From the IMG/VR virus record IMGVR_UViG_3300025902_000021: a DNA stretch of 64,000 nt. One strand, given 5' to 3'. The stretch comes from an uncultured virus (IMG/VR IMGVR_UViG_3300025902_000021). Its lineage: Duplodnaviria; Heunggongvirae; Uroviricota; Caudoviricetes. Numbering within the stretch: the first letter of the stretch is position 1; each line of letters begins with the position of its first letter. The notes beneath the pieces are model-generated. The model was given only the letters and a program-made list of their open reading frames with translations. It did no database searches and was not told the DNA's origin. The position numbers were made by a program, and so were the translations under genes. Shown one piece after another: positions 21,995 to 42,034 of this stretch.

Positions 21995-23811
21995 AGTTCC
22001 TCCATTTCGTACCAGTTGGGGCCATATTCGACCGTTGCGCGCATAGGGATATCAAACTCCCCCTTCTCCATTGCAGCTTTCAGAATGGCGACCTCGGACT
22101 TGAGATGCTTCTTCGAAACGCTGATACAGATTTCGTCATGTACCGTAGCCAGGAACCGTCCATGCTTCTTGGTATTATGGTACTCGATGATCGCTTGCTT
22201 CGTCTGATCCGCAGAGCTTCCCTGGATCAAGTAGTTGAGAAGCACGTAGTCCTTGTTCCAGATACGCCCATTCCGCCCCATTTCGGGTGGGGGAGCATAT
22301 AGCAGGCGACCGCCCCATGAGCGCACTGGCTCCTTCTGGGAGGCGCGGAACTCAACTTGATCCATGAACTCCTGGACGCCCGTAAGGGTGCGCATATATG
22401 ACGACCGAATCTTCGCAGCCTCGGAGGTGGAGACCCCCATACGCTCGGCCATCGTCTTGACCCCCGCCCCGTACAGGATGGAGAAGGCCACGACCTTGGT
22501 ATGCTTACGACTTAGGGCCAGCCCCGTATTGTCGGAGATGATGTCAGCTGCTACCTGGTGAATATCCGCAGCCGGATCGTTGTCGTAGATGTACTTGATC
22601 GCCCCCTCAGCGAAGTGGCCAAGCATGCGGATTTCCTGGGAGTGGAAGTCAGCTGACACGAACACCTCGCCTGGGTCGGGGAGTACATATACCCGCATAT
22701 GGGGCAGCTCCGGCAACTCCTCGGGTGCTTTGATCTTGAACTCGGTAGGGATGTTCTGGAAGTTGGGATCAGACGATGACAAGCGACCTGTCAGCGCCCC
22801 ATTCTGGTCACCTTTGACTTGATTCCACCGCGGATGGAGAATGCCGCCGGTTAGCAGGCCTTTCTCATACCAAGGTTTCATGAACGTGCCGAGCAGGGTC
22901 GACAGCGCCCCACGGTAGGCAAGAAGGTGAAACAGCTCGGGGTCGGTGATGACTTTCTCAAGTACATCACGTGCGGTCGATAGCTTGCCTGTTGGCGTTT
23001 TAGGCCAGTCGTCATCATCGACTGTCATGTCCACAGCCTTCGCCGCCATGGCCAGTTGGACGCCAGAGCTGATCTTGAACTCGGGATTATCCTCCTGCTC
23101 CAAGATTACCAGGATGCGGTGCTCGACCTCAGCGAATGCTTCCTCGTAGATGGCGATGTCTTTCTCCAGCCTGGGCATGTCGACGTGGATCCCCTCCAAC
23201 TCACTTTGGGTCAGGATCGGGGCCAGCTGCCGCTCACGGTCATAGGCTTCAACCATCCCGCTGGCCTCGATTTTGGGATAGAGTAGGTCATAGAGTAGTT
23301 TGGTGCGGAGGGTATCACCGCCCGCATAGGTGCCGACTAGGTCACCTGGGGCATCCGCGATATGGGCGCCCCACTTCTTCGTGTTGGAGGGAACTATTCC
23401 ATTGTGTACGAGCCAGTCTCTCACCGCGGTCTGCTCGTCAGGAGGGAGGTCGAGCAACCGATCAGCGCTGGGTTTGAGGCCCAGGGGCGACAGGGGGTCA
23501 TTGAGGAACAGGAGGTACATCGTATCGTGGATGCGATCCCACGACCCCCAGCTAGTCACGACCTCGGGGAACCATTTCATCAGAACCGCCATGTCGAAGC
23601 GGGCGTTCTGGCAGCACAAGGCATGGCCAGAGTCCCACATCCATTTGAGGAAGTAGCTGGCAGCCTCCTTGGTACAATTGTTCTCCGTAGGGTGACCCCA
23701 GGCTAAGTAGCAGGCTGGGAAATCATCGAGTTGAATGGAAACACCCACCGGCTCGGGTGGGTAGTTTGGGTACGGCTCAATGGCCGCAGTTTCAAAGTCA
23801 AAGGTTATCAT
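21991..23811 (-). CDS. DNA polymerase family A with 3'-5' exonuclease
   Basis: DFET exo I; TGRLSSSDPNFQNIP; ADFHSQEIR; RKHTKVVAFSILYG; NYLIQGSSAD; VHDEI. Confidence 0.95.
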   Translation of the reverse strand: MITFDFETAAIEPYPNYPPEPVGVSIQLDDFPACYLAWGHPTENNCTKEAASYFLKWMWDSGHALCCQNARFDMAVLMKWFPEVVTSWGSWDRIHDTMYLLFLNDPLSPLGLKPSADRLLDLPPDEQTAVRDWLVHNGIVPSNTKKWGAHIADAPGDLVGTYAGGDTLRTKLLYDLLYPKIEASGMVEAYDRERQLAPILTQSELEGIHVDMPRLEKDIAIYEEAFAEVEHRILVILEQEDNPEFKISSGVQLAMAAKAVDMTVDDDDWPKTPTGKLSTARDVLEKVITDPELFHLLAYRGALSTLLGTFMKPWYEKGLLTGGILHPRWNQVKGDQNGALTGRLSSSDPNFQNIPTEFKIKAPEELPELPHMRVYVLPDPGEVFVSADFHSQEIRMLGHFAEGAIKYIYDNDPAADIHQVAADIISDNTGLALSRKHTKVVAFSILYGAGVKTMAERMGVSTSEAAKIRSSYMRTLTGVQEFMDQVEFRASQKEPVRSWGGRLLYAPPPEMGRNGRIWNKDYVLLNYLIQGSSADQTKQAIIEYHNTKKHGRFLATVHDEICISVSKKHLKSEVAILKAAMEKGEFDIPMRATVEYGPNWYEMEEL

Positions 23812-23841
23812 CTCTGCCTATGCGTAGTCGTAGGATCGTTT

Positions 23842-23870
23842 GAAAGGGGGAGGGCGAACCCTACCCCCTA
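23842..23870 (-). terminator. Hairpin/terminator between SSB-like gene and polymerase
   Basis: Minus strand GGGGTAGGG-TTCG-CCCTCCCC followed by CTTT. Confidence 0.6.
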
Positions 23871-23879
23871 CCCGAGTTG

Positions 23880-24623
23880 CTAGAACTTACCCTTGCCCTT
23901 CGCAGGGGGTGCTACGGGCGTTTCCTCGGGGGTATTAACCCCGTTATCGAACAGAAGCTCGGTCTGCATACGCTCAACAAGGGGCATGACCGCCTCCAGA
24001 TGCTGGTCGTCCAGCAGGCCGGAGAACTTGAAGTTCACCTTGAACTGAGACACCTTGTCCGGCACTGTGGACATCTCGGTGATGACGCCGAACGGGGGAC
24101 GCTTCACAACGTTGCCGATCTGCTGGACGTATTTGTTCCAGTTCTTCCCAGAAGTGACGGGGATGCGGGCGAACAGGAAGTCAGCCTGGGCCAGCTCCTC
24201 GGGGTCGTTCGGCATGATCACCATACCGAGGCGCATCGTGTTCTTGCACGCCTTGCCCTTGCCGCCCTTCGGGTCAGACTCCCACTCGTTGTTCGGGCAG
24301 GTGGCGCAGCCGCCCTCGTGGAATAGGTGGGTCACCTTCCCAGGGATGGGGGCCATGGAGTCCTCGTTGTAGCCCACAGCCCAGCAGTCGGCCGACACGA
24401 CCTTTTTGGGGTCATAGGCGTTGGGGAACCACTGGTTCTCGTGGGCGAAGCCCAGGACGATCACATTGACCTTGTTACCGGCCGCAGGCTGATCGTTGAA
24501 CGAGAGGACGCCAGACTTGAACGAGATCAGCTTGGCCTCGGTCTTGGTTGCTTCGACTGCCTTCTTAGCAGCGGCTTCCATCAGGGCCTTGAAGTCGATG
24601 GGGGTTGCGATTTCAGTTGTCAT
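23880..24623 (-). CDS. Putative ssDNA-binding/annealing protein
   Basis: Position upstream of polymerase; C..CP.N.W.S...GKGKACKN motif. Confidence 0.6.
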   Translation of the reverse strand: MTTEIATPIDFKALMEAAAKKAVEATKTEAKLISFKSGVLSFNDQPAAGNKVNVIVLGFAHENQWFPNAYDPKKVVSADCWAVGYNEDSMAPIPGKVTHLFHEGGCATCPNNEWESDPKGGKGKACKNTMRLGMVIMPNDPEELAQADFLFARIPVTSGKNWNKYVQQIGNVVKRPPFGVITEMSTVPDKVSQFKVNFKFSGLLDDQHLEAVMPLVERMQTELLFDNGVNTPEETPVAPPAKGKGKF

Positions 24624-24647
24624 GCTTAGTGCTCCGTCAGTTAGTGA

Positions 24648-25019
24648 TTAGGATTTGCCCAGGGTTGCCTTGGTTTCCAGGACGCGGGCCACGCCAGGAA
24701 CCTCATTGCCCTCTTGCCAGCGCTCACGCACCCCAGTCAGGGACACGCGGCGTTGGAGGAGGTCAAATGATCCAGTTTCTTTAATGTATGCATACAGGTC
24801 GGGGTAGCTCGTGACCTCGGCAGATTCGATCATGCCGAGCTTCAGCTTTCCATGATCGCCATGGACTTCTTGCAGCTCCAGCTCCTCCATTTCGGAGGCC
24901 AGAGCAGCCACGAGGCCATCTTCCTTGGCCTTCATCATGTCCACCTTCTTCTGGATGGACAAGCGTTCTTGGCGGAGGTCGAACACTTCGTCGATACGTT
25001 CTTGAAGGGTCAGGTCCAT
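24648..25019 (-). CDS. Conserved phage replication-region protein (coiled coil)
   Basis: DLYAYIKETGSFDLLQRRVS...VPGV motif; GGGGA RBS. Confidence 0.65.
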   Translation of the reverse strand: MDLTLQERIDEVFDLRQERLSIQKKVDMMKAKEDGLVAALASEMEELELQEVHGDHGKLKLGMIESAEVTSYPDLYAYIKETGSFDLLQRRVSLTGVRERWQEGNEVPGVARVLETKATLGKS

Positions 25020-25020
25020 G

Positions 25021-25329
25021 TTATTCCCCATACTTTTGGTAGATGTCGTCGACAGCACTGAGCAAGAGCTTGTAGTGCATATTGTCTTTCTGGGGCAGGA
25101 GGAACAGATTGTGGGGGAAGTCACGGTCATCGGGATACATCGCATTCTCGATGAGCATCTTCCAGTGCTTGTCGAAGTCCTCATCCGGCACGGCGTTTAT
25201 GCGCAGCATAGCCAGATTGGAGGTGAGCCGCCCGTAGTCGTGGGCCGAGGGCTTGTCAGGGAAAATTCCAAGCTCTTTCACGATGTAGATGGCTTGCTCG
25301 ATGATGGAGGGGGGAAGCGGATTACTCAT
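25021..25329 (-). CDS. Hypothetical protein
   Basis: AAGGAG RBS; in operon. Confidence 0.6.
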   Translation of the reverse strand: MSNPLPPSIIEQAIYIVKELGIFPDKPSAHDYGRLTSNLAMLRINAVPDEDFDKHWKMLIENAMYPDDRDFPHNLFLLPQKDNMHYKLLLSAVDDIYQKYGE

Positions 25330-25447
25330 GAAAGAACTCCTTGATTTGGCGGGCTACATCGTTGAAGGCGTCGATGAGGTAGGCACCGACATAGAGAAGG
25401 GCAAGGGCGACGAAGGTCACGACCCATAGGTGGAGGATGAAGCTCAT
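25322..25447 (-). CDS. Small membrane peptide (41 aa, not in ORF track)
   Basis: MSFILHLWVVTFVALALLYVGAYLIDAF..; GGAGG RBS; ATGA overlap. Confidence 0.55.
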   Translation of the reverse strand: MSFILHLWVVTFVALALLYVGAYLIDAFNDVARQIKEFFHE

Positions 25448-25662
25448 ACGATCCTCCGATCAATCAGGCCGAAGTTGCAAAGGGGTTTGCCGTCGTACTG
25501 GATAGAGCTGCCGAGGGGCATGAAGGTCGGCGCGTCGATAGGCATCGGACGCTCATCGTAGTCTGACCACTCCGGTTGGAGGTCTTTGCCCAGAACGGGC
25601 TGGGCGGCGGTACGGGCGAGGGCACCCGAGCACGCTACGTGGCGTTGGTATTCAGATCTCAT
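25444..25662 (-). CDS. Hypothetical early protein
   Basis: First ORF behind the 25706-25735 promoter; GGAG RBS. Confidence 0.55.
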   Translation of the reverse strand: MRSEYQRHVACSGALARTAAQPVLGKDLQPEWSDYDERPMPIDAPTFMPLGSSIQYDGKPLCNFGLIDRRIV

Positions 25663-30324: not shown

Positions 30325-30774
30325 ATGAGTGATGCCCTCGAATACTTCCCTGCCGCCAACGATTGCGAGGAGTCTGAAGCGCAGCTCCTCACAGCGAGCG
30401 CATGCGAGCCAGAAGAAGGCCCAGATCTCCTGGCCCAATTTTCTCCTCCAGATCAGCTCTCCCAGGAAGTCATTAACCTGGCTCAATACGCCATTCGCAA
30501 ACGCCAGTCTCGCTCCCCCACCGTCAAGCAGAATATCATTGAGCAGTTCAACTCTACCTTCCACCTCATTGGTGGTGTTCCCCGCCTTGCCCTCTGGGCT
30601 GACAAGAACCCAACGGCATTTTATGCTCTCTACTCCAAGATGATCCCTGCCGCTATCAAGATTGACTCAACATCTCTTGATCCGAATGCCCTCCATGAGG
30701 AGGACTTGAAGGACATCTCAACGGACAAGCTCCGCCTGATGCTGTACAAGCGAGCGCAAGAACTTGGCAGTTGA
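30325..30774 (+). CDS. terS: Terminase small subunit (putative)
   Basis: Directly upstream of TerL; GGVPRLALWADKNPTAFYALYSKMIP motif. Confidence 0.7.
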   Translation: MSDALEYFPAANDCEESEAQLLTASACEPEEGPDLLAQFSPPDQLSQEVINLAQYAIRKRQSRSPTVKQNIIEQFNSTFHLIGGVPRLALWADKNPTAFYALYSKMIPAAIKIDSTSLDPNALHEEDLKDISTDKLRLMLYKRAQELGS

Positions 30775-32245
30775 TGCCTACCAGCTGCTACAGCAGCTTG
30801 AGACCAGGGACCGAGCCAAAACCCAGTTGGCCGAGTATGCCAACTACATGCTTGAGGTCGTACCGGCCCTGCACCATCACCTCATCTGTGACGCCATTGA
30901 CGAACTACTCGATGACAACTATGATGAGTTGATAATCCTGGCGCCGCCAGGTAGTGCTAAGTCCACATACACCTCCATCGCCCTCCCCTCATATTACATG
31001 GGCAAGTTCCCCAAGGGCCATATCCTCACCGCCTCATACAGCACTGAGCTGGCGGAGAAGTGGGGGCGGCGCGTGCGTAACATTGTCGATACCCCCCGCT
31101 TCAAAGCACTATTCTCGGTCAGCTTGTCCAAGGACGCCACCGCAGCGACCCGCTGGGCTACCAATGAGGGTGGGGAGTTCTATGGTGCAGGCGTAGGCAG
31201 TGGCATATTGGGCTTCCGTGCTGACTTGGCGGTGATTGACGACCCCATCTCTGGCTTCGAGCAGGCCAACTCCATCACGCAGCTACAGAAGGTGCACAAC
31301 TGGTACGAGACAGACTTCATCACCCGCCTGAAGCCGAATGGCAAGGTGGTACTGATCTGTCAGCGGCTGGCCCGGAATGACTTGGCTGGCTACTTGATTG
31401 ACCGGAACATAGCCTCCCCCACCCGCCGCCAACGCATACTCACCCTTCCAATGCTCTCCAAGGGCGAGGGTGACCCACTCAACCGCCCAGAAGGTGAGCG
31501 CCTGTGGCCTGAGTGGTACACGGAGTCCATGGTCGCCGACGCCCAACGGGATGACTACAAATGGCGTACCCTGTACCAGCAGGAGCCGCCAGCTGATGAG
31601 GGCTCATGGGTCTCCACGGATGACATTCAGTTCCGCCCATCCCCAGCCAACCCAGAGGTGAAGTATGCGTGCTCAGACCTGGCTCTGTCGGTCAATTCAG
31701 GGGACTACACAGTACACTTCATTGTGGCAGTTGACAGTCTTGGAGACTGGGATATTATTGACGCTACGCGGGAGCGTGTTGACCCTGAGGCGTCAGCCCA
31801 AAGAGTCATCTCCCTCTGCCAAACCCACTCCCCCCGCGAGTGGCTCATAGATGATGACAACTCATCGAAGGTGTTCATGCCCCTCGTGGCTACCAAGGCG
31901 CGCCAGACAGGTACGCACGTTCCATGGAAGCCCATGCCCCTCCGTGGGCAGGACAAGGAAACACGTGCCGCGCCGCTACGGGGCCAATACAAGCGTCGCA
32001 AGGTGTACATGCCCCATGACGCCCACTTCACCCAATGGCTGACCAAGGAGCTATTGACCTTTCCCAACGCCCTGGGGGATGGGGTGGATGACGGGGTGGA
32101 CGCACTGTCCCTCATGGGTCGTCGCCTGATGGCCATATCCGGCCCCACCCTCGTGGTCGTGCCCAAATCGCTCCCCACCACGGCTGATATGACGCTCGAC
32201 CAGCTGTTCGAGGACATGCCCAAAACAGGAACTGCCCGCATATGA
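30764..32245 (+). CDS. terL: Terminase large subunit
   Basis: APPGSAKST Walker A; G.G.GILGFRAD..VIDDP; LYQQEP; DDGVDA nuclease motif. Confidence 0.95.
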   Translation: MAVDAYQLLQQLETRDRAKTQLAEYANYMLEVVPALHHHLICDAIDELLDDNYDELIILAPPGSAKSTYTSIALPSYYMGKFPKGHILTASYSTELAEKWGRRVRNIVDTPRFKALFSVSLSKDATAATRWATNEGGEFYGAGVGSGILGFRADLAVIDDPISGFEQANSITQLQKVHNWYETDFITRLKPNGKVVLICQRLARNDLAGYLIDRNIASPTRRQRILTLPMLSKGEGDPLNRPEGERLWPEWYTESMVADAQRDDYKWRTLYQQEPPADEGSWVSTDDIQFRPSPANPEVKYACSDLALSVNSGDYTVHFIVAVDSLGDWDIIDATRERVDPEASAQRVISLCQTHSPREWLIDDDNSSKVFMPLVATKARQTGTHVPWKPMPLRGQDKETRAAPLRGQYKRRKVYMPHDAHFTQWLTKELLTFPNALGDGVDDGVDALSLMGRRLMAISGPTLVVVPKSLPTTADMTLDQLFEDMPKTGTARI

Positions 32246-33015
32246 AAACCCTTGATGAAATGATCCAAACGGCGCGGGTGCTACGCAATCCTACGCTCCC
32301 CCGCAACTCAGTCATGACTCAGCTCTCCGCCCCAGCTTGGCAACCTGAGTATGAGAAAGAGCCACCGCTTGAGCAGGTGTCTCCTGAGGACTTCATTCCC
32401 AATCCAAAGTCAGTTGTTGCTGCTTTGAAGGGTGCCCCTGCCATGTTTGGGGTGGGTGCCCTGAAGGATTGGAGTCCCAAGTTTATTGAGAAACTTGGGG
32501 TTAAGGAGGCAGCCACTCCTGGACATTTTGAGGGCACCTTCCCCTCAGGACGGCTGACCCTTCCTGAATCTACAATGGCGCTTCACAATGCTAACTTCTT
32601 GAGAGATGAGAAGCGTGCAGCAAAGAAACTTGTACCCCCTCCTCCAGAAGTTATTGACCGGATAAATGCAGCAGGAAACACTCTTCACGGAGCAGGGGGA
32701 ACATACCTCCCCTACAAAGCTGAGGGGGCCGATTACAAAGAAGTGCCGCTATCAACCTTCCTTACAAAGCACGTTGGGAAGGCAAATCTAAAACAGATGA
32801 TGCAGCCAGATACTGGATCAGCCACCCATGCTATTGGAATTCAAGGGATTGCCCATGGCGTTCGTGAAGATGGAACCCCCATCGCCGTGGATGATTTCAG
32901 GGAGCTGCTCAATGGCCCCTCCTATGTAGCAGCATATACAGACTCCCCAAACCAAACAATTTGGAAGATAACTCCAGACATAATGTCGCTTGAAGACCTT
33001 TGGAGAAAGAAGTAA
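32242..33015 (+). CDS. Leader-bearing protein 1, unknown C-terminal domain
   Basis: ATGA coupling to TerL; N-terminal W.PEYEKEPPLEQVSPEDFIPNPK shared with next gene. Confidence 0.7.
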   Translation: MKTLDEMIQTARVLRNPTLPRNSVMTQLSAPAWQPEYEKEPPLEQVSPEDFIPNPKSVVAALKGAPAMFGVGALKDWSPKFIEKLGVKEAATPGHFEGTFPSGRLTLPESTMALHNANFLRDEKRAAKKLVPPPPEVIDRINAAGNTLHGAGGTYLPYKAEGADYKEVPLSTFLTKHVGKANLKQMMQPDTGSATHAIGIQGIAHGVREDGTPIAVDDFRELLNGPSYVAAYTDSPNQTIWKITPDIMSLEDLWRKK

Positions 33016-33863
33016 TGGAAACGCTTGAGTCCATGCTCCTGCGCCGCCCGCGCCCTGGTCCACTGAACCAATCAGGATCGGTGATGACCCAAGCACCTCA
33101 AGAGGGGTGGAAACCTGAGTATGAGAAGGAGCCACCGCTTGAGCAGGTATCACCTGAAGACTTCATCCCCAACCCCAAGACGGCAATTGCTGCCTTGAAA
33201 GGGATGCCTCTTGTCGCTGGTACGTTCCTTGGCAAGAACTCCCCATTGTGGGATCCCAACCGTGCAGCGGCTGCTGAATTGCGTCTTGCAGGTGGAGAGG
33301 CGCCAGAATCTGTTTGGAGGGCGTTGCGCACGGGTCGGTTGCCTGAGGGTCAGATGACCCAAGAGATTAGCGATGCGGGCACGAAGGTGGATCTTGCAAA
33401 ACTGAACTCCACTCCCGCCCTCACCTACCACGCTGCTCCTGATGTGATCAAAGGGCCGGTCATGGGGGTACACCCTGACTTCCAGAATTACTTGATCCAG
33501 ATGAACCCCAATATGAAGGGTGTAGGGGGGCGGCATTGGGCAACTAAGAAGTTGATCGAACTCAACCCGAAAATGGTCACCGATCCCGACACTGCGACAT
33601 CGGTGATTCTTCACGAGCTTGGGGGACATGCTACCCAAAATCGGATGGGCTACCACGGCGGTGGGGTTCCAAAATTTGGGGTAAATATTGACCCTAAGCA
33701 AGCATTCAAAAACTACCGTGACATCTATGGGGAGGCCATGGCTCGGTTGATCCAAGGGCGGCACAACCTCTCCAGATCCCAAATTTCCGAGCAGTACCCC
33801 TTTGATCCTGACTACTTCAAGCAAGTGACGGGATCTGCCATCAATGAGTTGAGGAGGCCGTAA
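33015..33863 (+). CDS. Leader-bearing protein 2: LPD23-like domain plus zincin-like metallopeptidase motif
   Basis: TFLG...G...E.VW..L..G....G....EISD; ILHELGGHATQ...Y....GEAMAR..Q.R. Confidence 0.65.
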   Translation: METLESMLLRRPRPGPLNQSGSVMTQAPQEGWKPEYEKEPPLEQVSPEDFIPNPKTAIAALKGMPLVAGTFLGKNSPLWDPNRAAAAELRLAGGEAPESVWRALRTGRLPEGQMTQEISDAGTKVDLAKLNSTPALTYHAAPDVIKGPVMGVHPDFQNYLIQMNPNMKGVGGRHWATKKLIELNPKMVTDPDTATSVILHELGGHATQNRMGYHGGGVPKFGVNIDPKQAFKNYRDIYGEAMARLIQGRHNLSRSQISEQYPFDPDYFKQVTGSAINELRRP

Positions 33864-35896
33864 TGTCAACAGAAGCATACACCACCGCTGGGCGGATCAA
33901 GTCGGTCGAGGAAACGGAAAAGACATCAGCATCACGCTATCGTCGTTGGTATGATGAGATCACGATGGCGGAGAAGGAGTTTGATAACTTCCGCAAGCAA
34001 GGGCGCACTACCGTGCGACGCTTCAAGGATGAGCGTGACTCCGTGGATGGAGATCAACGCAAGTTCAATATCTTCACCGCCAATGTGGGCATCCTGCAGT
34101 CGTCCCTCTACGCCAAGCTGCCGAAGATTTCGGTCAGTCGCCGCTTTGGTCAGATGAATGACGATCCCGCACGCGTAGCGTCCTTGATGCTACAGAATGC
34201 GATTATGCAGGACATTGACGAGCCGGAGTGTGACTTTGACCAGGTCATGCGGGATGCTGTGGAGGATAGGTTGGTCCCAGGGATGGGGTGTGCATGGCTT
34301 CGCCTTGAGGTGGACACTGAGGAGAATGTCCTGGAGGCTCAGACCGACCCGATGACTGGGGAGGTGATACAACCGGAATCAACCTATGAGGCGATCAGCC
34401 GCCAAGAGGTGATTATCGAGCACGTGTTCTGGGAGGATTTCCTGTACTCCCCATGCCGCACTTGGAAGGAGCGCCGCTGGGTCGGGCGGAAGGTGTACAT
34501 GGACCAGGATGCCCTCGTTGAGCGCTTCGGTGAGGACGTTGGCAAGCAGATCCCATTGGACTACAACCCGAGGGGCACCCAGGGCCAATCCAACGAACCG
34601 AAGAATGACGTGCTTCAGAAGGCGGTCATCTATGAAATCTGGGATCGCCAGACCCGCAAGGTCTTGTGGCTCTCTAAGGGCCACGATACCCTTCTGGATG
34701 AGGTCGATGACCCCCTCGGCCTTGAAGACTTCGAGCCGTGCCCCAAACCCCTCTTCGCCCTCACCACCACCTCCAACTGCATTGCCGTCAATGACTTCGT
34801 GATCTGTCAAGATCAATACAACGAACTCGACCTTGTGAACAACCGTATCTCCCTGCTCATTCAAGCATGTAAGGTCGTGGGTGTGTATGACGTATCCGCT
34901 ACCGGCATTCAGCGTATGCTCCAGCAGGGTAGCGAGAACACGATGATCCCCGTTGACAACTGGGCGATGTTCTCTGAGAAGGGTGGGGTCAAGGGCGCGG
35001 TCGATTGGCTCCCCCTGGAGGTGGTCATTCAAGCCTTGGAGAAGTTGCGCCAAGCTCGGGATGATATCAAGGGTCAAATCTATGAGCTGACTGGTATTGC
35101 CGACATCGTTCGTGGCGACACCAAGGCCAGCGAGACTCTGGGCGCTCAGAAGATCAAGGCTGCGTTCGCCTCGGTGCGCATACAGAAGCTGCAGGACGAG
35201 GTGGCCCGGTTCGCTCAGGACATCCTGCGCCTCAAGGGTGAGATCATCTGCCGCCACGTTGTGCCCGAGCAGATCATCAAGATGTCGAACTTTGAGTACT
35301 ACAACGATGCTCAGAACGCCACGCTGATCCAGGAAGCCATAGCCCTCCTCAAAGGCGAGCACGAACTGTTCGAGTGGCGCGTCAAGGTTCAGGCCGATTC
35401 GCTCGCGCAGGCTGACTACCAGATGCAGAAGCAGGAGAAGATTGAATTCACCAACGCTGTGGCTACCTTCCTCCAGTCGGCGGCGACCACGATGAAGGCT
35501 ATGCCCGATACCGCCCCGATCATCTTTGAGACCCTCAAGTTTGCCATCAGTGGCTTCAAGGGTGCCTCGGAGCTGGAGGGCGTGATCGATCAGAACCTCC
35601 AAGTCATCATGCAGAAGATTCAGAACCCGCCCCCGCCCCCGCCCGACCCAGCAGTGGTCAAGGCCCAGGCCGAACTCAAGATGAAGGGCGAAGAGCACCA
35701 AATGGACATGCAAGCTGATCAGCAAGATATGGCTAATAAGCAACAAGAGCACCAGATGGACATGCAGTTCTCGGCTCAGGAACATCAGCAGAAGATTGCA
35801 CAGGATCAGGAGAAGTTCTACCAAACCTTGGCACAGAATGAAGCCAAGGCCCGTCAGCAAATGGTGGAGAATGCGAGGAAAGATAATGGCTCGTAA
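33863..35896 (+). CDS. Portal protein
   Basis: 677 aa after terminase; FNIF.ANV; FEPCPKPL; IYELTGIADIVRG....ETLGAQ; Gln-rich C-terminal barrel. Confidence 0.9.
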   Translation: MSTEAYTTAGRIKSVEETEKTSASRYRRWYDEITMAEKEFDNFRKQGRTTVRRFKDERDSVDGDQRKFNIFTANVGILQSSLYAKLPKISVSRRFGQMNDDPARVASLMLQNAIMQDIDEPECDFDQVMRDAVEDRLVPGMGCAWLRLEVDTEENVLEAQTDPMTGEVIQPESTYEAISRQEVIIEHVFWEDFLYSPCRTWKERRWVGRKVYMDQDALVERFGEDVGKQIPLDYNPRGTQGQSNEPKNDVLQKAVIYEIWDRQTRKVLWLSKGHDTLLDEVDDPLGLEDFEPCPKPLFALTTTSNCIAVNDFVICQDQYNELDLVNNRISLLIQACKVVGVYDVSATGIQRMLQQGSENTMIPVDNWAMFSEKGGVKGAVDWLPLEVVIQALEKLRQARDDIKGQIYELTGIADIVRGDTKASETLGAQKIKAAFASVRIQKLQDEVARFAQDILRLKGEIICRHVVPEQIIKMSNFEYYNDAQNATLIQEAIALLKGEHELFEWRVKVQADSLAQADYQMQKQEKIEFTNAVATFLQSAATTMKAMPDTAPIIFETLKFAISGFKGASELEGVIDQNLQVIMQKIQNPPPPPPDPAVVKAQAELKMKGEEHQMDMQADQQDMANKQQEHQMDMQFSAQEHQQKIAQDQEKFYQTLAQNEAKARQQMVENARKDNGS

Positions 35897-36191: not shown

Positions 36192-37298
36192 ATGTCCGAT
36201 GATCTGCGTTCCGTATTGGAGTCAGCCGTTGAAGAACACTCTGAGCCCGTTCAAGTCGAGTCCTCCCCCACTCCTGCGCCGTCCGAAGCGGCTGCGCCCG
36301 TACAATCGTCGGATGCGCCGGAGCAATCCAATGCTACGCCTTCGGATCAGCCTGTCGAGAAGTCAGCACCTGAACTTCCTAGCATCGAGGAGGTTGCTAG
36401 CAAAGATGGCAAGCCGGTGGAGGACAAAGCTGAGACTCCAACGGATCGTCAGCGGGTTGATCTAGCCCCCCAATCATGGAAAGGTGAGTCCAAGAAGGTC
36501 TGGACCGAGCTTCCTCTCAACGTTCGTCAGGAAGTCATACGGCGCGAACGTGAGATCACGAAGGGGTTGAGCGAAGCGGCTCAGGCTCGTCAGCAAGTCG
36601 GTCAGATTCAAGAAGTCCTCCAGCCTCACATGGATCGCATCAATACGATCTATGGCGGCAATTCGATCCAGGCTATCACTAACTTGATGGGCATCGAGCG
36701 CACCCTGGCCAGCGGCGATCCCGTCTCCAAGGCTCAGCTGGTAGCGAAGATGATCAACCACTTCAAGGTGGATCTTGTAACTTTGGATAAGTTGCTTGTA
36801 GGCGAAGCCCCCACCCCCGAGGCTCAGCAGCAAACCAACATCGAGAAGTTGCTTGAGCAGAAGCTGGCGCCCTTCCAGCAATTCATCTCTATCCAACAGC
36901 AACGTGAGCAGGAGAAGGCCCGCCAAGTTGAGCAAGAGACGATCCATACAATCGAGTCAATGGCGGTTGATCCCAAGTTTCCGTACTTCAATGAGGTGCG
37001 GAATGATATGGCGGATCTCATCGACATCGCCGCGAAAAAAGGGCTTTACTTATCATTAGAGCAGGCGTATACTAAAGCTGTCCGTATGAATGATGGTACT
37101 TTTGAAGCCTCAACCGTAAGAGACACCACTCAAGCTGCTACCCAAGCAGCGCTGCAAGCTCACCAAGCGGCCCAAAAGGCCAAAGGAGCTGCGGTTAGTG
37201 TAGGTGGCTCCCCTACTGGTATTGGCGGGAATGCCGGAAACTCAGCGGATTTGCGCGGAACCATTCTCGCAGCTTTGGGTGATGCAGGACGGCTATGA
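36192..37298 (+). CDS. Scaffolding protein
   Basis: Acidic Pro-rich N-terminus; APQSWK...W.ELP; coiled coil; precedes capsid gene. Confidence 0.8.
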   Translation: MSDDLRSVLESAVEEHSEPVQVESSPTPAPSEAAAPVQSSDAPEQSNATPSDQPVEKSAPELPSIEEVASKDGKPVEDKAETPTDRQRVDLAPQSWKGESKKVWTELPLNVRQEVIRREREITKGLSEAAQARQQVGQIQEVLQPHMDRINTIYGGNSIQAITNLMGIERTLASGDPVSKAQLVAKMINHFKVDLVTLDKLLVGEAPTPEAQQQTNIEKLLEQKLAPFQQFISIQQQREQEKARQVEQETIHTIESMAVDPKFPYFNEVRNDMADLIDIAAKKGLYLSLEQAYTKAVRMNDGTFEASTVRDTTQAATQAALQAHQAAQKAKGAAVSVGGSPTGIGGNAGNSADLRGTILAALGDAGRL

Positions 37299-37492: not shown

Positions 37493-38473
37493 ATGGCTTT
37501 TGCAAATCCCTCGATCAGTGATGTCATTGCGACCACGATCCAAAATCGCTCTGCGATCATCGCCGACAACGTCACCAAGAACAATGCCCTTCTCGCTCGC
37601 TTGAAGCAGCGCGGGAACGTGAAGAAGTTCTCCGGTGGTAACGTCATCCTGCAAGAACTCTCTTTCGCCGAAAACGCCAATGCCGGTTACTACAGCGGCT
37701 ATGAAACTCTGCCGGTCGCCGCGCAGGACGTGATCTCCGCAGCCCAGTATGACATCAAGCAAGCGGCCTGTCCGGTCACTATCTCCGGCTTGGAACAATT
37801 GCAAAACGCCGGCAAGGAGCAGATCATCGACCTGCTCGAAGGCCGCATCGCTGTCGCTGAATCCACCATGGCCAACCTGATTGCCGGCGGCTTGTACTCC
37901 GATGGTACGGGCTATGGCGGCAAGGAAATCTCCGGCCTGAACCTCCAGGTGCCGATCAACCCGGCAACTGGCTCCCCCGGTGGCATCGACCGTGCTACGT
38001 GGAATTTCTGGCGCTCCCAAGCTTTCGACTTCACTACCAACGGCGGTGCGGCTGTTACCGCTGCGAACATCCAGACCTACATGAACAAACTCTGGGGCTC
38101 CCTGGTTCGCGGAAATGACCGTCCCGACCTCGTGATTGTGGACAGCGTCCTTTGGGGCCTGTACATGAACAGCTTGCAGGCGATCCAGCGCTTCACGTCC
38201 AGCGACTCGGCCAACCTCGGTTTCGTCACTACGAAGTTCATGGATGCCGACGTGGTGCTCGATGGCGGTATCGGCGGCTTCTGTCCGGCTTCGACGGGCT
38301 TCATGCTCAATACCAAGTACCTGTTCTATCGTCCGCATGCCCAACGTGATATGGTCGCTTTGTCTCCGGGCAAACGCTACTCTGTCAACCAGGATGCGGA
38401 AGTTCAGATTCTGGCTTGGGCCGGCAACCTGACCTCCTCTGGTCTGCAGTTCCAGGGCCGCATGAACGACTAA
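37493..38473 (+). CDS. Major capsid protein
   Basis: IADNVTKNNALL.RL; SGG..I; YSGY; LYSDGT; GGIDR.TW.FWR; position. Confidence 0.92.
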   Translation: MAFANPSISDVIATTIQNRSAIIADNVTKNNALLARLKQRGNVKKFSGGNVILQELSFAENANAGYYSGYETLPVAAQDVISAAQYDIKQAACPVTISGLEQLQNAGKEQIIDLLEGRIAVAESTMANLIAGGLYSDGTGYGGKEISGLNLQVPINPATGSPGGIDRATWNFWRSQAFDFTTNGGAAVTAANIQTYMNKLWGSLVRGNDRPDLVIVDSVLWGLYMNSLQAIQRFTSSDSANLGFVTTKFMDADVVLDGGIGGFCPASTGFMLNTKYLFYRPHAQRDMVALSPGKRYSVNQDAEVQILAWAGNLTSSGLQFQGRMND

Positions 38474-38970: not shown

Positions 38971-39855
38971 ATGCTACCGGGCGCGCGTACTGACAACGGG
39001 GCGATTTACGTCACCCAAGGGCCACCTCCTGCTGGCACTCCGCTGGTAGGGGGCATTGCTGTCAGCCCTCTGGGCGTGATCTACGCCTCGCAGTCCGTCG
39101 CGCCCGTGTTCGACCCAGAGGACTTGTTCCAGAACAGCGAGCAAGGCGCATGGTACGACCCGTCCGACCTCTCCACGATGTTCCAAGACGCCGCAGGCAC
39201 TACGCCGGTCACTGCGGATGGTCAGCCGGTCGGGTTGATCCGCGATAAGTCAGGACGCAACAACCACGCCTCGCAAGCCACCGCCGCCAAGCGTCCGCTG
39301 TACAAGACCGATGGCACGCTGCACTGGTTGCAGTTCGATGGAGTGAATAGTGCGCTGGCGACTGCGAGTATTGACTTCACCGTTACTGGCAATGTCACTG
39401 TATTTATCGGCATTGATAAATTATCGGATGCTACTGTAGGCACGGTTTTTGGCATTGGTGATGTGAATGTCAATAATAGGTGTTTATATATCAGAGCGCC
39501 GGGGGATATTGGAACCCCAACCTATCGCATAGGAATGAAAGGCCCAGCATGGGCAGAAGCAAATGGTGGAATAGCAACTGCCCCAGTCACTAACGTAATA
39601 ACTGACATTGCTCAGTGTGCAGCACCAAGGCAGGAACTTAGGATAAATGCAGTATCTTCTGTGGTCAATACCGATAATCCAGCTATGCCGACGTTTGGAA
39701 ATCTTCCAATTTACATAGCGGAAACTGGGTCAGGAATGCAGTATAGTAATTCTCATATCTACTCCCTGATTGCCCTCGGTCGCCTCGCCACCACACAGGA
39801 AATCACTGACACTGAAACATGGGTCGCAAATAAGACAGGAATTTCGCTTCCATGA
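38971..39855 (+). CDS. Virion surface protein, ConA/LamG-like
   Basis: Shared N-terminus with 600-1595; WLQFDG; lower-GC beta-rich variable part. Confidence 0.65.
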   Translation: MLPGARTDNGAIYVTQGPPPAGTPLVGGIAVSPLGVIYASQSVAPVFDPEDLFQNSEQGAWYDPSDLSTMFQDAAGTTPVTADGQPVGLIRDKSGRNNHASQATAAKRPLYKTDGTLHWLQFDGVNSALATASIDFTVTGNVTVFIGIDKLSDATVGTVFGIGDVNVNNRCLYIRAPGDIGTPTYRIGMKGPAWAEANGGIATAPVTNVITDIAQCAAPRQELRINAVSSVVNTDNPAMPTFGNLPIYIAETGSGMQYSNSHIYSLIALGRLATTQEITDTETWVANKTGISLP

Positions 39856-40598
39856 GCAATTTCTCAGCATCCATCCCCGTTGCCGATATGGCTGCGGCCA
39901 ACGCCACACTGGAACTGGATGGCTATGGCCCGGACAACTTCAGCGTGCCGGCCTACGCCGGACCCACAGCCTCTGTTGCACTGCTCCATGCATGGGGCGA
40001 CCCGGACTTCGAGGCGGCAGTGGCAGCGATTCCCGGTGTGACCATCGTCCAAGGCGATGAACCAACGATGACCACCACGGCAGCAGCAACGGCCAAGGGT
40101 TCAACATGGGGAACTGATGCGCAACCGCTAACCGGCACAGTGTCTCCGGGACTCTACGTGGACGCTGACGGGGTGCTGTGGTGGGTTATCCAGTCCTACA
40201 ACACCGCGGCTTATCCAGATCCAACGATCATCCCAGCACTGATCCGTCAAGCAAAGATTCCCGGCGAGGCATTGCCATGGGTCCAGCCAATCGACCAGTA
40301 CGATGCCTACAAGTTGGTCAATCCATTCACGGGCGAGGGCGACTATTGCACCCACAAGGGTAGCAAGTGGCAGGTCACGCAGGCGGATGGCGCTGGCAAC
40401 AATGTCTGGGAGCCGGGCGTGTTCGGCTGGAACAACATCGGCCCTGACCTGAACATCACCACCGACCTCGATGGTGACGGCTTCCTCGATGTGGTGCGGT
40501 TTGACAATGGCACCCTCAAGATTACCGAGGACGCAGACTCCATCGACATCGACCTGAACGGCGATGGCATTTCCGACATTCACATTCCGAAGCCCTGA
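39852..40598 (+). CDS. Virion protein with CBM5/12-like motif plus DxDGDG calcium-binding-like extension
   Basis: Homologue of 1595-2191; extra DLDGDGFLD and DLNGDGISD. Confidence 0.65.
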   Translation: MSNFSASIPVADMAAANATLELDGYGPDNFSVPAYAGPTASVALLHAWGDPDFEAAVAAIPGVTIVQGDEPTMTTTAAATAKGSTWGTDAQPLTGTVSPGLYVDADGVLWWVIQSYNTAAYPDPTIIPALIRQAKIPGEALPWVQPIDQYDAYKLVNPFTGEGDYCTHKGSKWQVTQADGAGNNVWEPGVFGWNNIGPDLNITTDLDGDGFLDVVRFDNGTLKITEDADSIDIDLNGDGISDIHIPKP

Positions 40599-40600
40599 CC

Positions 40601-41377
40601 ATGAACTACGTAAACGGGTTCAAAGTTGATAACGACGGCACGCTGCAAGTCGGCCCGCCACCCATCACGCACTACGCGATGGGCTTGCCGTTCAACGCTG
40701 CGGATGGTCTGGTCATCCAATTGAATCAGCCCGAGTCGCCCGGTGATGCCTACGTGGGTGGCATCCGTGTCGGTCCTTTGGGTGGCGTCTATGCGGTGGA
40801 TGAAACGCCCTCCACCGCTGTTCCGCCCGTCAATACCGTCCTCCCCGACACCACAGGTGACGCGAAGGTTGGGTCGGTGCTGACGACCACTCAGGGTACG
40901 TGGACCGGCACTGCGCCGATCACCTACGCCTACCAGTGGTACAGCGGCATCAACGTCATTACCGGCGCGACGGCCAACACCTACACGGTACAGGTCAGCG
41001 ACCTTGGGAATGCGGTTCTCTGCCAAGTGACCGCGACCAACGCTGCCGGGGGTGCTTCGGCAACTGGCCCCGGCGTCCGCATCGTATCTGCCCGCTACAA
41101 CTACCTGACCAATGCGGGTGTTCCTGCGACGGGATATGTCAGTGCGGGAAGTGTCAGCGCGCCGAATCAGGTTCGCATCAACGAAGTCGACAAGGATGGC
41201 TTCGACCACAATGGGCCGTTCTCCCGTATGCGGATTGGCGACAGTATTTTCGTCGGCACCCAAGAGGGCATCATCGCGCAGGAACCCATCGATGCGGGGG
41301 GCTACTACATCTTCGAGATGGTGTCGTGGCCTGCGTTGGCTGACGGCGCCTACGACGTAACACTTAGCTTCAACTAA
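40601..41377 (+). CDS. Ig-like domain virion protein
   Basis: Close homologue of 2188-2967. Confidence 0.7.
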   Translation: MNYVNGFKVDNDGTLQVGPPPITHYAMGLPFNAADGLVIQLNQPESPGDAYVGGIRVGPLGGVYAVDETPSTAVPPVNTVLPDTTGDAKVGSVLTTTQGTWTGTAPITYAYQWYSGINVITGATANTYTVQVSDLGNAVLCQVTATNAAGGASATGPGVRIVSARYNYLTNAGVPATGYVSAGSVSAPNQVRINEVDKDGFDHNGPFSRMRIGDSIFVGTQEGIIAQEPIDAGGYYIFEMVSWPALADGAYDVTLSFN

Positions 41378-41431
41378 CAGCGGGTAGTCATGCCCCGTTT
41401 CCCAAGCATCGACACAAAAAGGAGAATCCAA

Positions 41432-42025
41432 ATGCAAGCAACTCTGCCGTCGTATGACGAATCAGCGGTGATGGACAACAGTCAAATCGCCCGCTACGCA
41501 ATGGACAAGAAGCTGGTCGTGAATTTCTACGTCCGCGCTGTTCAGAACACCTTCAAAACCGCACAGGAAGGTCGCCCGATCTTCGATGAGTCGGAGTTCG
41601 TTCGCATCATCATCCCGGGCGACACCAAGACCATCATCGACACCAAGGTCACTGCCGAGTACCGCCACCGCTTCCAGGACAAGTACGAACGGTTCCAGAA
41701 GGGGATGGCGCAGGCACAGTCGGGAACGCCGCTGGAAGTGTGGCCGCAGATGACTGTTGGTCAGGTTGCCGAACTCAAGGCCACCGGCATCACGACTGTC
41801 GAGCAACTGGCCGAACTGTCCGACACCAACGCCCAGAAGTTCATGGGTTCGTTCCAGCTTCGCCAGAAGGCACAGGCGTTCCTCGAAGCCGCTGCCGGTG
41901 ATGCCGCCAACAGCAAGCTGGCCGCTGAACTGGAGAAGCGCGACGTGGAAATCGCCGCGCTGAAGGCCCAGATGGAGCAGATCCTCAAGGTCAAGGCCAA
42001 ACCCGATTCACCCAAGGCCGCATAA
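41432..42025 (+). CDS. Conserved phage protein
   Basis: AAGGAG RBS; homologue of 3022-3603. Confidence 0.7.
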   Translation: MQATLPSYDESAVMDNSQIARYAMDKKLVVNFYVRAVQNTFKTAQEGRPIFDESEFVRIIIPGDTKTIIDTKVTAEYRHRFQDKYERFQKGMAQAQSGTPLEVWPQMTVGQVAELKATGITTVEQLAELSDTNAQKFMGSFQLRQKAQAFLEAAAGDAANSKLAAELEKRDVEIAALKAQMEQILKVKAKPDSPKAA

Positions 42026-42034
42026 GGAACCACC

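Follow-up and report, generated by a model that had tools for sequence, protein, structure and literature searches.

Two genes of an uncultured tailed virus (IMG/VR record IMGVR_UViG_3300025902_000021) raise the question of why proteins with unrelated bodies should begin with the same peptide. The genes, here called ORF-A and ORF-B, lie in a 64,000-nt stretch of DNA, the whole of which was analysed and is referred to as the window. The first-pass annotation had proposed that the shared leader is a head-packaging or ejection tag carrying exchangeable effectors.

Two coupled genes with a common start

ORF-A and ORF-B are placed between the large terminase subunit gene (terL) and the portal gene, all four on the + strand (Table 1). 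Their coupling, claimed from the first reading, is evident at the junctions: the terL stop and the ORF-A start overlap in the sequence ATGA, and the ORF-A/ORF-B and ORF-B/portal junctions are each a TAATG overlap of 1 nt. No terminator-like site was found between these coupled genes, and a promoter and terminator scan returned nothing above chance. The ORF list starts ORF-B at TTG 33000, but ATG 33015 (282 aa) is the likelier start, because a GGAG lies upstream of it and the relative P0005 begins METLE, like ORF-B. In runs X1 and X3, a 2137-nt contig piece spanning 32032-34168 showed zero differences from the window, and the same stretch was likewise fully covered in runs X4 and X5; the gene arrangement is therefore not the artefact of a single assembly. 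Runs X1-X5, in which this phage occurs, come from anaerobic-digester or activated-sludge samples, and no RNA run is listed among those containing it. Stenotrophomonas phage BUCT555 and Myxococcus phage Mx8 are cultured relatives, with portals 35-39% identical to that of the window. In both, terL leads straight into the portal gene, which makes the leader genes accessory insertions.

Table 1. Positions of the genes, leaders and DNA repeat copies in the terL-portal region of the window
Feature	Coordinates	Strand	Remarks
Large terminase subunit gene (terL), 493 aa	30764..32245	+	phrog_38 E 3e-90; Pfam Terminase_6C, Terminase_6N
ORF-A, 257 aa, P0001	32242..33015	+	Leader and uncharacterised payload, invariant GIQGxAHGV motif
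Leader of ORF-A, aa 1-64	32242..32433	+	Leader profile match E 6e-40
DNA repeat copy 1, leader core in ORF-A	32338..32432	+	Repeat family D1, 95 nt
ORF-B, 282 aa, P0007	33015..33863	+	Leader and predicted zincin/SprT-like, LPD23-type payload
Leader of ORF-B, aa 1-63	33015..33203	+	Leader profile match E 3e-36
DNA repeat copy 2, leader core in ORF-B	33108..33202	+	84% identical to copy 1
Portal gene, 677 aa	33863..35896	+	phrog_12082 E 2e-165

Compared by BLASTP, the two proteins align over residues 1-82 only, with 44/82 identities (54%, E 9e-22), and the shared leader occupies approximately the first 64 of these residues; outside the aligned region the only matches had E >= 14. The pattern quoted for the common start, M.TL..M...L.R.P...SVMTQ, was correct, as was the divergence after it, and the C-termini are not homologous. 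The ORF-A leader consists of a basic N-terminal helix-like segment, an SVM motif, an acidic proline-rich core (WQPEYEKEPPLEQVSPEDFIPNPK) and AALKG. When all six frames of the window were searched with the leader profile, the two copies in Table 1 were the only ones found, the next best match having an E of 0.48. The AlphaFold2 model of ORF-B, built on a 4-sequence alignment, has pLDDT <50 across nearly all of residues 1-81 and is uninformative on leader structure.

The DNA repeat beneath the leader core is present, although its length had been slightly overstated; the 95-nt copies are those of Table 1. Differences in the core are mostly synonymous, in agreement with the selection on the peptide proposed earlier. 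The alignment from SVM onward covers 45 codons, of which 20 are unchanged, 14 carry synonymous and 11 non-synonymous differences. The corresponding figures for the 24-codon core (W..PNPK) are 16, 7 and 1, so that seven of the eight differing core codons are synonymous. These counts support the view of the leader as a peptide module conserved by purifying selection.

A rare leader with exchangeable payloads

The leader is not limited to this locus. A profile search among 1,835,955,588 representative proteins gave 36 matches at E<=1e-3, and combining these with a separate 29-protein search set and one locus ORF yielded 48 leader proteins in all, 46 of them besides ORF-A and ORF-B. In 44 of the 48 the leader begins within the first 28 residues; in four multidomain polyvalent proteins (P0024, P0044, P0045 and P0047; 724-900 aa) it is internal. 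Across the family the module has a short basic helix-like start, an invariant S-V-M and an acidic proline-rich core ending VSPED(F/W)IPNPK; the core has a mean net charge of -4.3 and a proline content of 19%.

No Pfam, PHROG, NCBIfam or PDB entry matched the leader. Against PDB sequences the best E was 0.41, and no Pfam model, LPD models included, matched the leader region at E<=0.05-0.1 in ORF-A, ORF-B and 45 further leader proteins. A tblastn search with ORF-A and ORF-B gave 0 matches among 50,697 deposited phage records. One scan of cellular genome contigs yielded no accepted leader and no prophage copy; its only match, 17 residues long and internal to a 1326-aa protein encoded in a metagenome-assembled genome (L013), was doubtful and was left uncounted. 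Among the papers listed by full-text literature searches, none describes the leader. Judged by these searches, the leader is a genuine protein module and a rare one.

Grouping by BLASTP of the 47 leader proteins whose payload has 40 aa or more gave 18 payload clusters. The eight payloads of the ADP-ribosyltransferase type, which does not include the window genes, have R148-G149, S166 and E223 invariant in 8/8 members, and thus the conserved Arg, Ser and catalytic Glu of the R-S-E criterion; two of them exceed the PF03496 cut-off of 23.4 bits (P0016, 30.6; P0020, 27.7). Another eight are ParB-like, with an invariant H..RHR (phrog_26754, E 4.5e-5). Seven carry a PcfJ polyvalent payload, PF14284 being matched in 6/7; P0024 combines GNAT, the leader and PcfJ, and PcfJ is also present in P0044 and P0045. 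The ORF-A and ORF-B types have four members each, and a PBECR5 payload in P0036 was matched below threshold (E 5.8e-5). Payload clusters of two or more members comprise 36 proteins, and for 18 of these the nearest leader is joined to another payload; there are also six protein pairs in which the leaders are at least 75% identical and the payloads unrelated. Payloads have been exchanged behind near-identical leaders, as the effector-swapping part of the original proposal required.

These results bear on the simplest account of the locus, that a chance tandem duplication was followed by divergence and left a shared start that is functionless or acts as an element at the DNA or RNA level. Such an event would produce adjacent genes with a common 95-nt repeat. 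However, the C-termini of ORF-A and ORF-B are unrelated, each with its own relatives on other leaders, the core differences are mostly synonymous, and the leader recurs in 46 further proteins with swapping of payloads; at the RNA level, the repeat folds no better than shuffled sequences (z -0.54). We regard chance duplication as refuted on these grounds and give almost no credence to an origin of this kind. Two outcomes named in the first-pass annotation as refuting its proposal, a leader confined to this locus and homologous C-termini, were not borne out.

The payload of ORF-A was described at first reading as unrecognised, and it is still so after database searches. Only the leader proteins P0019, P0033 and P0034 have a related payload. 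ORF-A matched nothing in Pfam, PHROG or NCBIfam, a word-indexed search with residues 75-257 returned only the query itself, the Atlas gave no usable match for the payload, and a payload profile against the PDB reached an E of 0.36. By these comparisons, the ORF-A payload is without a match outside the leader family.

The ORF-B payload is probably zincin-like and LPD23-like, as had been suggested. The AlphaFold2 model is of low confidence (mean pLDDT 49, pTM 0.38). Structural matches of ORF-B in the Atlas have TM 0.72-0.84 by query and belong to clusters with LPD23 in 94-100% of members; domains resembling this payload are elsewhere fused to MuF_C or ART-PolyVal. In BFVD, searched with this low-confidence model (pLDDT 49), there were seven matches at E<=1e-3, and four of these bear the name large polyvalent protein associated domain. 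The VIA-align list is dominated by zincin-type chains and includes PprI, the DNA-protein crosslink repair protease entry 6mdx and selecase; its top match, to the zincin-like protease 3e11, has Z 5.3 and an rmsd of 3.3 A over 72 residues, and values of Z <8 may be due to chance. At the sequence level, LPD23 (PF18838) had no match in ORF-B and scored 22.1 bits against a cut-off of 27 in the relative P0027, while DUF6782 (E 0.046) and SprT (E 1.2e-4) were sub-threshold matches to ORF-B. All four aligned sequences keep H200, E201, H205 and G239-E240 unchanged. The motif reported for ORF-B needs a qualification: HELGGH has HExxxH spacing, whereas the three relatives P0005, P0027 and P0035 read HExxH. 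Foldseek found no PDB match to the model at E<=0.001, and the best profile match in the PDB, an unrelated toxin at E 0.0085, was judged a chance hit. Separately, HELGGH and GEAQAE motifs were sighted by eye only in a protein of lineage L029. Payload homology between this protein and ORF-B was considered and rejected, since hhalign aligned the leader only.

Genomic position across phage lineages

Leader genes stand among late genes in all 11 lineages with genomic context and within packaging/structural or tail clusters in 10 of them. Eight (the window, L002, L005, L012, L019, L020, L029 and L036) have the gene no more than two genes from terL. It lies 3' of terL and 5' of the portal gene in the window, L002, L019, L020, L029 and L036; other genes intervene before the portal gene in L020 and L036, and L002 has no ORF of at least 70 aa between its ART gene and the portal gene. 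In two lineages (L003 and L006) the leader gene is beside the tail gene phrog_6013, far from terL. In the remaining one, L021, it adjoins lysis genes, not packaging or tail genes.

The placement near terL spans two phage groups without core similarity between their portals, the common part of which is only a proline- and Q/E/M-rich C-terminal tail. Between these groups the leaders are 36-53% identical and the TerL proteins approximately 24%. Within the loci compared, TerL (phrog_38) is the sole other protein detectably common to both. L019 and L036 belong to the second group. The capsid protein (37493-38473) and scaffold-like protein (36192-37298) of the window, which also encodes internal proteins at 45308-49763, had no match in the three complete genomes of the second group, an empty answer that proves little. 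Because the leader is conserved at this level across groups with dissimilar portals and with TerL at only ~24%, simple docking to the portal is argued against. A leader that docked to a fast-evolving structural partner would be expected to diverge along with it, which counts against a head-docking role. This conservation, and the position of the L021 gene beside lysis genes, appear to tell against loading into the head.

The same conservation could point outside the phage. The leader may be a docking motif directed at a conserved host hub, bringing varied enzymes to one target, with any packaging an independent matter. Its conservation far exceeds that of its carriers' structural proteins, as would fit a conserved non-phage partner, and its acidic core (-4.3), with 19% proline and modelled without structure, is what a linear docking motif would look like. 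We nevertheless consider this rather unlikely. Proteins made late affect a host only if they are carried to the next cell, so that the late position of the gene in all 11 lineages, 10 of them in packaging or tail clusters, counts against host docking, and one trafficking step in common explains 18 unrelated payloads more economically than one common host target would.

It could also be that the leader acts through the large terminase, binding TerL or the packaging motor and thereby loading cargo at the portal vertex or modulating packaging. TerL is the one other protein detected in both groups within the loci compared, and the gene keeps within two genes of terL in 8/11 lineages, with other genes before the portal gene in L020 and L036. 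Nevertheless, TerL is itself only ~24% identical between the groups, phrog_38 is so broad a family that sharing it says little, and L003 and L006 keep the gene in a tail cluster, far from terL. We know of no precedent for terminase-dependent protein loading, and a role of this kind seems quite unlikely to us. A possible mimicry of the TerL C-terminus in the window (…MTLDQLFEDMPK) by the leader start was also considered; the resemblance was too weak to use.

Relation to known delivery systems

The leader looks like an address tag, most likely one that loads effector proteins into the virus particle, and we hold this reading with moderate confidence. ORF-A and ORF-B would then be members of a polymorphic family of late phage proteins, a variant of the phage polymorphic and polyvalent effectors. 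Each family protein would combine a conserved N-terminal trafficking module of approximately 60 residues with an exchangeable effector domain. The module would bring the protein to the portal vertex or internal core of the head during assembly, and the effector, carried inside the particle, would pass into the next host together with the DNA. ORF-B would deliver its putative zincin/SprT-like peptidase domain of LPD23 type, which could process co-delivered proteins or host targets, and ORF-A its uncharacterised domain. The explanation draws on the selection acting on the shared leader, its recurrence before exchanged payloads and the late-gene position, and also on the resemblance of the ORF-B payload to domains fused to MuF_C or ART-PolyVal, the lack of an immunity-like ORF after ORF-A or ORF-B, and the negative scan of cellular contigs. 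Incorporation into virions, ejection and the choice of docking partner are its inferred parts.

The proposed arrangement has several parallels. In T4, a common short N-terminal peptide on unrelated proteins, the internal proteins and Alt, directs entry into the prohead; this capsid targeting sequence is approximately 10 residues long and is cut off by the prohead protease. The leader is likewise a short N-terminal peptide common to unrelated proteins, with a prohead role as a candidate function, but it has ~60 residues and no sequence similarity to the T4 peptide. No member of a prohead protease family was found among the window ORFs scanned with PHROGs, a result that does not exclude one. Encapsulin cargo peptides are also short, disordered and conserved on unrelated cargo, and dock inside an HK97-fold shell. 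They usually sit at the C-terminus, and their partner is the shell protein of a compartment that is not viral, whereas the leader is N-terminal; the likeness is one of design, with no homology claimed.

Among phage toxins, a close comparison is with the MuF polymorphic toxins of temperate phages, which have a conserved N-terminus and a variable C-terminal toxin, with genes in the packaging module near the portal and terminase genes (PMC5576092). The same source defines polymorphic toxin families by an N-terminal trafficking region. The leader family has the same plan, with 18 payload clusters, and the two systems share both the position near portal and terminase genes and payloads of ADP-ribosyltransferase and nuclease type. 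However, the leader is not a MuF domain, because it has ~60 aa and no Pfam match; neither PF04233 nor PF06152 was matched in ORF-A, ORF-B and 45 leader proteins at E<=0.05-0.1. MuF genes lie immediately downstream of the portal gene, whereas leader genes are upstream of it. Furthermore, a small immunity ORF follows 89% of MuF toxin genes (PMC5576092), whereas no small immunity-like ORF is present downstream of ORF-A or ORF-B, with ORF-A leading directly to ORF-B and ORF-B to the portal gene, and prophage copies of leader genes were not found.

The polyvalent proteins provide the other comparison. Like the leader proteins, they have a repertoire of ART, ParB-like, zincin/MPTase, PBECR, GNAT, LPD23 and PcfJ-like domains and gene positions beside the portal and terminase genes (here within two genes of terL in 8/11 lineages), with delivery alongside the DNA proposed (PMC5512222). 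In the same source, proteins fused to MuF or portal domains are considered likely to be effectors that are injected, and T4 Alt is a packaged ADP-ribosyltransferase. A polyvalent protein is defined there by two to fifteen distinct conflict-related domains per polypeptide (Iyer et al. 2017, PMC5512222). P0024, P0044, P0045 and P0047 are multidomain proteins with the leader inside. In contrast, ORF-A and ORF-B are short, each with the leader and one payload region, and in the leader family one module, unmatched by any LPD model, recurs as a common N-terminal element.

The missing immunity ORFs suggest another possible role, in which the leader is a cis-acting pro-peptide that holds toxic payloads inactive in the producer as long as it is attached; the zincin domain of ORF-B is one agent that might remove it. 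Payloads of toxin-like type are indeed found without an immunity-like ORF downstream. Zincin-type genes recur near leaders, in ORF-B and in an L012 HExxH ORF (phrog_882), along with HELGGH and HELTH motifs noted by eye only in L029 and L036 proteins, and the polyvalent protein source proposes processing by zincin-like peptidases (PMC5512222). Against this, inhibition of 18 unrelated folds is hardly to be expected of a single disordered peptide of ~60 residues, and in the four polyvalent proteins it is internal and not N-terminal to the enzyme domains. We therefore think a pro-peptide function very unlikely; it could be compatible with the address-tag explanation.

The address tag might further be a portable cargo-loading peptide, independent of portal type and read by a structurally conserved feature of the packaging machinery, be it TerL, the capsid interior or the proline- and Q/E/M-rich portal tail (PPPP/Q-E-M) common to both groups. 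This we offer as a tentative possibility. If it were true, any protein placed behind these ~60 residues would be loaded into the head and injected, which would amount to a general rule for phage effector delivery and provide a ready tool for loading proteins into particles.

Carriage of effectors with phage DNA is known or proposed for T4 Alt and the internal proteins, MuF toxins and polyvalent proteins, and in very few such systems is it understood how cargo is selected for the particle. The leader is a short and sharply defined candidate tag, which in nature already precedes 18 or more unrelated payloads and occurs in phages whose portals are unrelated. Should it suffice for loading, cargo selection would become directly testable by reporter fusion, phage heads would gain a compact handle, and uncharacterised domains such as the ORF-A payload would be flagged as likely early-acting effectors.

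Two coupled genes with a common N-terminal leader

The two window genes that begin with the same leader are tightly coupled to their neighbors: terL and ORF-A overlap by ATGA, and both the ORF-A/ORF-B and the ORF-B/portal overlaps are TAATG. A site scan found no terminator-like site within the junctions of these four genes. ORF-B most likely starts at the ATG rather than at the listed TTG, since that codon is preceded by GGAG and the protein's closest relative, P0005, has the same first residues. By BLASTP, the two proteins share 44 identities over 82 positions (54%, E 9e-22) at the N-terminus only, with no similarity beyond it. Of 45 aligned leader codons, 20 match exactly, 14 show synonymous and 11 non-synonymous differences; in the 24-codon core (W..PNPK) the counts are 16, 7 and 1. 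Because the core differences are mostly synonymous, selection must act on the leader peptide. As RNA, the repeat has no folding advantage over shuffled sequences (z -0.54), and a six-frame profile search found no third leader copy in the window.

A contig piece spanning 32032-34168 with zero differences is present in X1 and X3, two of the sequencing runs that contain the window phage, and this stretch is additionally covered in runs X4 and X5. In X4 and X5, contigs of related phages follow the window as far as 31861 and resume at 33956, skipping 2094 nt; the depth at this joint is 17 and 32, against 175 and 210, and its sides measure just 26 and 21 letters. Several contigs also have loose ends at 33959. 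These are weak hints that close relatives differ in precisely the segment from 3' terL to 5' portal.

The window contains two related yet distinct phage genome segments in series. The phrog_5107 proteins of its two tail modules are only 50% identical. In the virus record G001 these two leader genes also occur, 455 nt closer to the start than in the window, which suggests that the record corresponds, if colinear, to approximately window 456-38688. Given the two tail modules, the two replication modules and the match to G001, the 79-kb contig may unite sequence from two strains or may have been assembled as a chimera.

Coordinates of features in the window and in other leader-bearing loci
Locus	Feature	Coordinates	Strand	Remarks
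Window	Large terminase gene (terL)	30764-32245	+	phrog_38, E 3e-90
Window	ORF-A (P0001), 257 aa	32242-33015	+	between terL and portal
Window	ORF-B (P0007), 282 aa	from 33015 (ATG, most likely start); listed from 33000 (TTG)	+	
Window	Portal gene	33863-35896	+	phrog_12082, E 2e-165
Window	DNA repeat	32338-32432 and 33108-33202		95 nt, 84% identity
Window	HELGGH of ORF-B	33612-33629		residues 200-205
Window	Portal tail	35630-35896		poly-proline stretch, then Q/E/M-rich; low complexity
Window	Two tail modules	2113-13468 and 38971-52612		phrog_20268, phrog_6013, phrog_5107, tail fibre, phrog_20531
Window	Two replication modules	13593-25662 and 52919-64000	-	
Window	DUF5856/phrog_858 ORF	3603-3947		phrog_20268-phrog_6013 slot
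Window	72-aa ORF without match	42035-42253		phrog_20268-phrog_6013 slot
L003	Leader-ParB gene	6001-6528		phrog_20268-phrog_6013 slot
L005	P0030	8358-9215		between terL and portal
L012	95-aa HExxH ORF	630-917		terL-portal slot, ahead of leader gene; phrog_882, E 8.6e-21
L019	Gene with the shared portal tail	10670-13411		poly-proline stretch, then Q/E/M-rich; low complexity
L020	Homing endonuclease	9700-10344		between leader gene and portal; phrog_314, E 5.7e-26
L029	Leader protein with HELGGH	8692-10248		otherwise dissimilar to ORF-B

A recurrent leader and its payloads

A profile built from nine leaders and scored against 1.84 billion representative proteins retrieved 36 proteins at E<=1e-3, and a word-indexed search of a larger collection retrieved 29; with one ORF read from a locus, the leader-bearing proteins total 48. 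In 44 of them the leader begins no later than residue 28, and in four long proteins of 724-900 aa (P0024, P0044, P0045 and P0047) it is internal. It begins with a short, mildly basic segment (M-D-Y-x-x-I-L-x-A-x-L-R or M-K-x-L-D-E-M, mean charge +1.7), continues with an invariant S-V/I-M/F and an acidic, proline-rich core (mean charge -4.3, 19% Pro) that reads WQPEYEKEPPLExVSPED(F/W)IPNPK or the variant ...LEAPMISPDDLIGTGIPTK, and ends in a mildly basic Gly/Ala-rich segment. No match to the leader was found in Pfam, PHROGs or NCBIfam, or among PDB sequences (best E 0.41), and ORF-A and ORF-B gave zero tblastn matches in 50,697 deposited phage genomes. A lone 17-residue match in one scan of 185,579 cellular species genomes was dropped as doubtful.

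In 47 proteins the leader is followed by 40 residues or more, and BLASTP at E<=1e-4 sorts these payloads into 18 clusters. Eight carry ADP-ribosyltransferase-like payloads, with Arg, Ser and Glu motifs invariant in all eight and PF03496 above threshold in P0016 and P0020. Another eight are ParB-like with an invariant H..RHR; for the L006 protein there is a match (E 4.5e-5) to phrog_26754, annotated "ParB-like partition nuclease". Seven are long polyvalent proteins, six of them with a PcfJ-like domain (PF14284); P0024 has a GNAT domain as well, upstream of the leader. The ORF-A type (P0001, P0019, P0033, P0034) and the ORF-B type (P0005, P0007, P0027, P0035) comprise four proteins each, and the remainder form two small families, of three and two members, or stand alone as 11 singletons, among them one with a sub-threshold match to the PBECR5 nuclease. 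A few of these singletons could belong distantly to larger groups, for example P0046, in which a DGHHR motif was seen by eye.

Where a payload relative is present in the set, the nearest leader has a different payload in half of the cases (18 of 36). Six pairs have leaders 79-87% identical and unrelated payloads, while the leaders of ORF-A and P0033 are only 48% identical despite the same payload. Leader similarity that is independent of payload is the signature of payloads exchanged repeatedly while the module ahead of them stayed conserved. Duplication followed by divergence was also considered, and the leader and payload similarities do not match the pattern expected of it. In the six pairs, similarity stops, by eye, just past PNPK(S/T), and therefore the Gly/Ala segment travels with the payload.

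The first-pass annotation had described the ORF-B payload as LPD23-like and zincin-like, and both sequence and structural matches support this, although every sequence match of the family lies below curated thresholds. These sub-threshold matches are DUF6782 "putative metallopeptidase" (E 0.046 for ORF-B, 9.6e-6 for P0027), LPD23 (E 1.4e-4, P0027), SprT (E 1.2e-4) and the 1879-position profile phrog_13543 (P0005 and P0027). An Atlas model of ORF-B (pTM 0.67) matches clusters with LPD23 in 94-100% of members at TM 0.72-0.84 by query; MuF_C occurs in 52% of one of these, and ART-PolyVal in 82-98% of two. Even a poor AlphaFold2 model from four sequences (pLDDT 49) has seven BFVD matches at E<=1e-3, of which four bear the name "large polyvalent protein associated domain". 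VIA-align returned a weak list (top Z 5.3) of mostly zincin-type chains, with the ArdC antirestriction protein at Z 3.8. H200, E201, H205, G239 and E240 are invariant in the family. The payload is thus a predicted zincin-type, LPD23-like domain, and ORF-B itself has one extra residue between the histidines (HELGGH, or HExxxH) compared with the HExxH of its relatives. The same HELGGH string was seen by eye in the L029 leader protein. For the ORF-A payload, in which GIQGxAHGV and a few other residues are invariant, word-indexed, Atlas and PDB searches found no relatives outside the leader family.

Further modules were noted by eye or by search. The long polyvalent proteins P0024, P0044, P0045, P0047 and P0049 (loci L018, L019 and L020) show, by eye, F-A-x-G-G-(S/T)-V ahead of the leader and again ~25 residues from the C-terminus, where a conserved helix-like tail (…L.AII.AIQSG) follows; these repeats may mark sites of processing or be copies of a docking helix. 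The domain behind their leader (GVIKNKGGNWL..GSVEGAL) is matched by 13 further viral contigs (L022-L028, L030-L035) over query residues 59-101 only, the leader part missing, and appears to be a separate, more widespread module. P0030 carries the same payload as the leader proteins P0018, P0022 and P0040; its N-terminal ~85 aa differ and have no leader-profile match, yet begin MGALE like some leaders, and could represent another type of leader.

Genomic position across lineages

Eleven lineages with usable flanks were counted, leaving out L018 (4.2 kb) and L013. In group I the portal is of family phrog_12082 and the genome measures ~38 kb; G001 (38,233 nt, estimated 98% complete), which has both leader genes, belongs here. 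Group II has portal family phrog_1216, with three genomes of 61-64 kb rated 100% complete and carrying one leader gene apiece.

Gene order around leader genes
Lineage	Group	Order
Window	I	terL - A - B - portal
L002 (= L008)	I	terL - ART - portal
L005 (= L004, L009, L010, L011)	I	166-aa ORF - ART - terL - P0030 - portal
L012	I	terL - small HExxH ORF (phrog_882) - leader ORF
L003	I	phrog_20268 - leader-ParB - tail protein phrog_6013
L006	I	tail protein phrog_6013 - leader-ParB - phrog_5107
L019	II	terL - 101-aa ORF - leader polyvalent - portal
L020	II	terL - 86-aa ORF - leader polyvalent - homing endonuclease - portal
L036	II	terL - leader protein - 656-aa ORF - portal
L029	II	terL - leader protein - portal
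L021	II	endolysin - phosphoesterase - 88-aa ORF - 148-aa ORF - leader protein

The leader gene lies at most two genes from terL in 8 of the 11 lineages, in the tail cluster in two and elsewhere in one; close kin are among them (portal identity 91% for L019/L020, 69% for L029/L036 and 77% for window/L002). The cultured phages that come nearest, BUCT555 and Mx8, have portals with 35-39% identity, and in both the portal follows terL directly, so the leader genes are accessory insertions in this slot. Content also varies in the slot that separates the phrog_20268 gene from the tail gene phrog_6013.

A possible route into the head

From the observed modular architecture and genomic context, we lean towards a leader that would direct its protein into the assembling head, for later ejection, much as the first-pass annotation had proposed. 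This reading rests on likeness to effectors known or proposed to travel in the phage head: an enzymatic C-terminus that varies behind an N-terminus that is conserved, a late-operon position beside packaging genes, a repertoire of ART, ParB-like, zincin, PBECR, GNAT and LPD23 domains, the lack of an immunity-like ORF downstream, and absence from cellular genomes in one scan. Comparable systems, in passages of PMC5512222 and PMC5576092, are MuF fusions, portal fusions, polyvalent proteins and T4 Alt. ORF-B would deliver a predicted zincin-type peptidase, and passages of PMC5512222 propose that such enzymes process co-delivered proteins, in the head or after injection.

Leaders are 36-53% identical between groups I and II. 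By the same comparison, similarity between the portals is confined to a C-terminal tail rich in proline and Q/E/M (E 5e-5), TerL is ~24% identical, and the window capsid and scaffold proteins have no match in group II genomes, though by the tool's own account an empty answer proves little. Such conservation across otherwise unrelated portals argues against simple portal docking. The docking partner could instead be very conserved, either a host protein or a feature of structure rather than sequence. TerL is another possible partner, and the leader cassette could also move horizontally. The portal tail is one feature common to both portal families of leader-bearing phages. AlphaFold2 models nearly the whole leader at pLDDT <50 from four sequences, which would fit a linear docking peptide yet is uninformative.

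Full-text literature searches listed no description of the leader. As a kind of system, polymorphic or polyvalent phage effectors that carry a trafficking domain are already known; the putative trafficking element itself is new, a ~60-residue module found with 18 payload clusters in two phage groups with unrelated portals.
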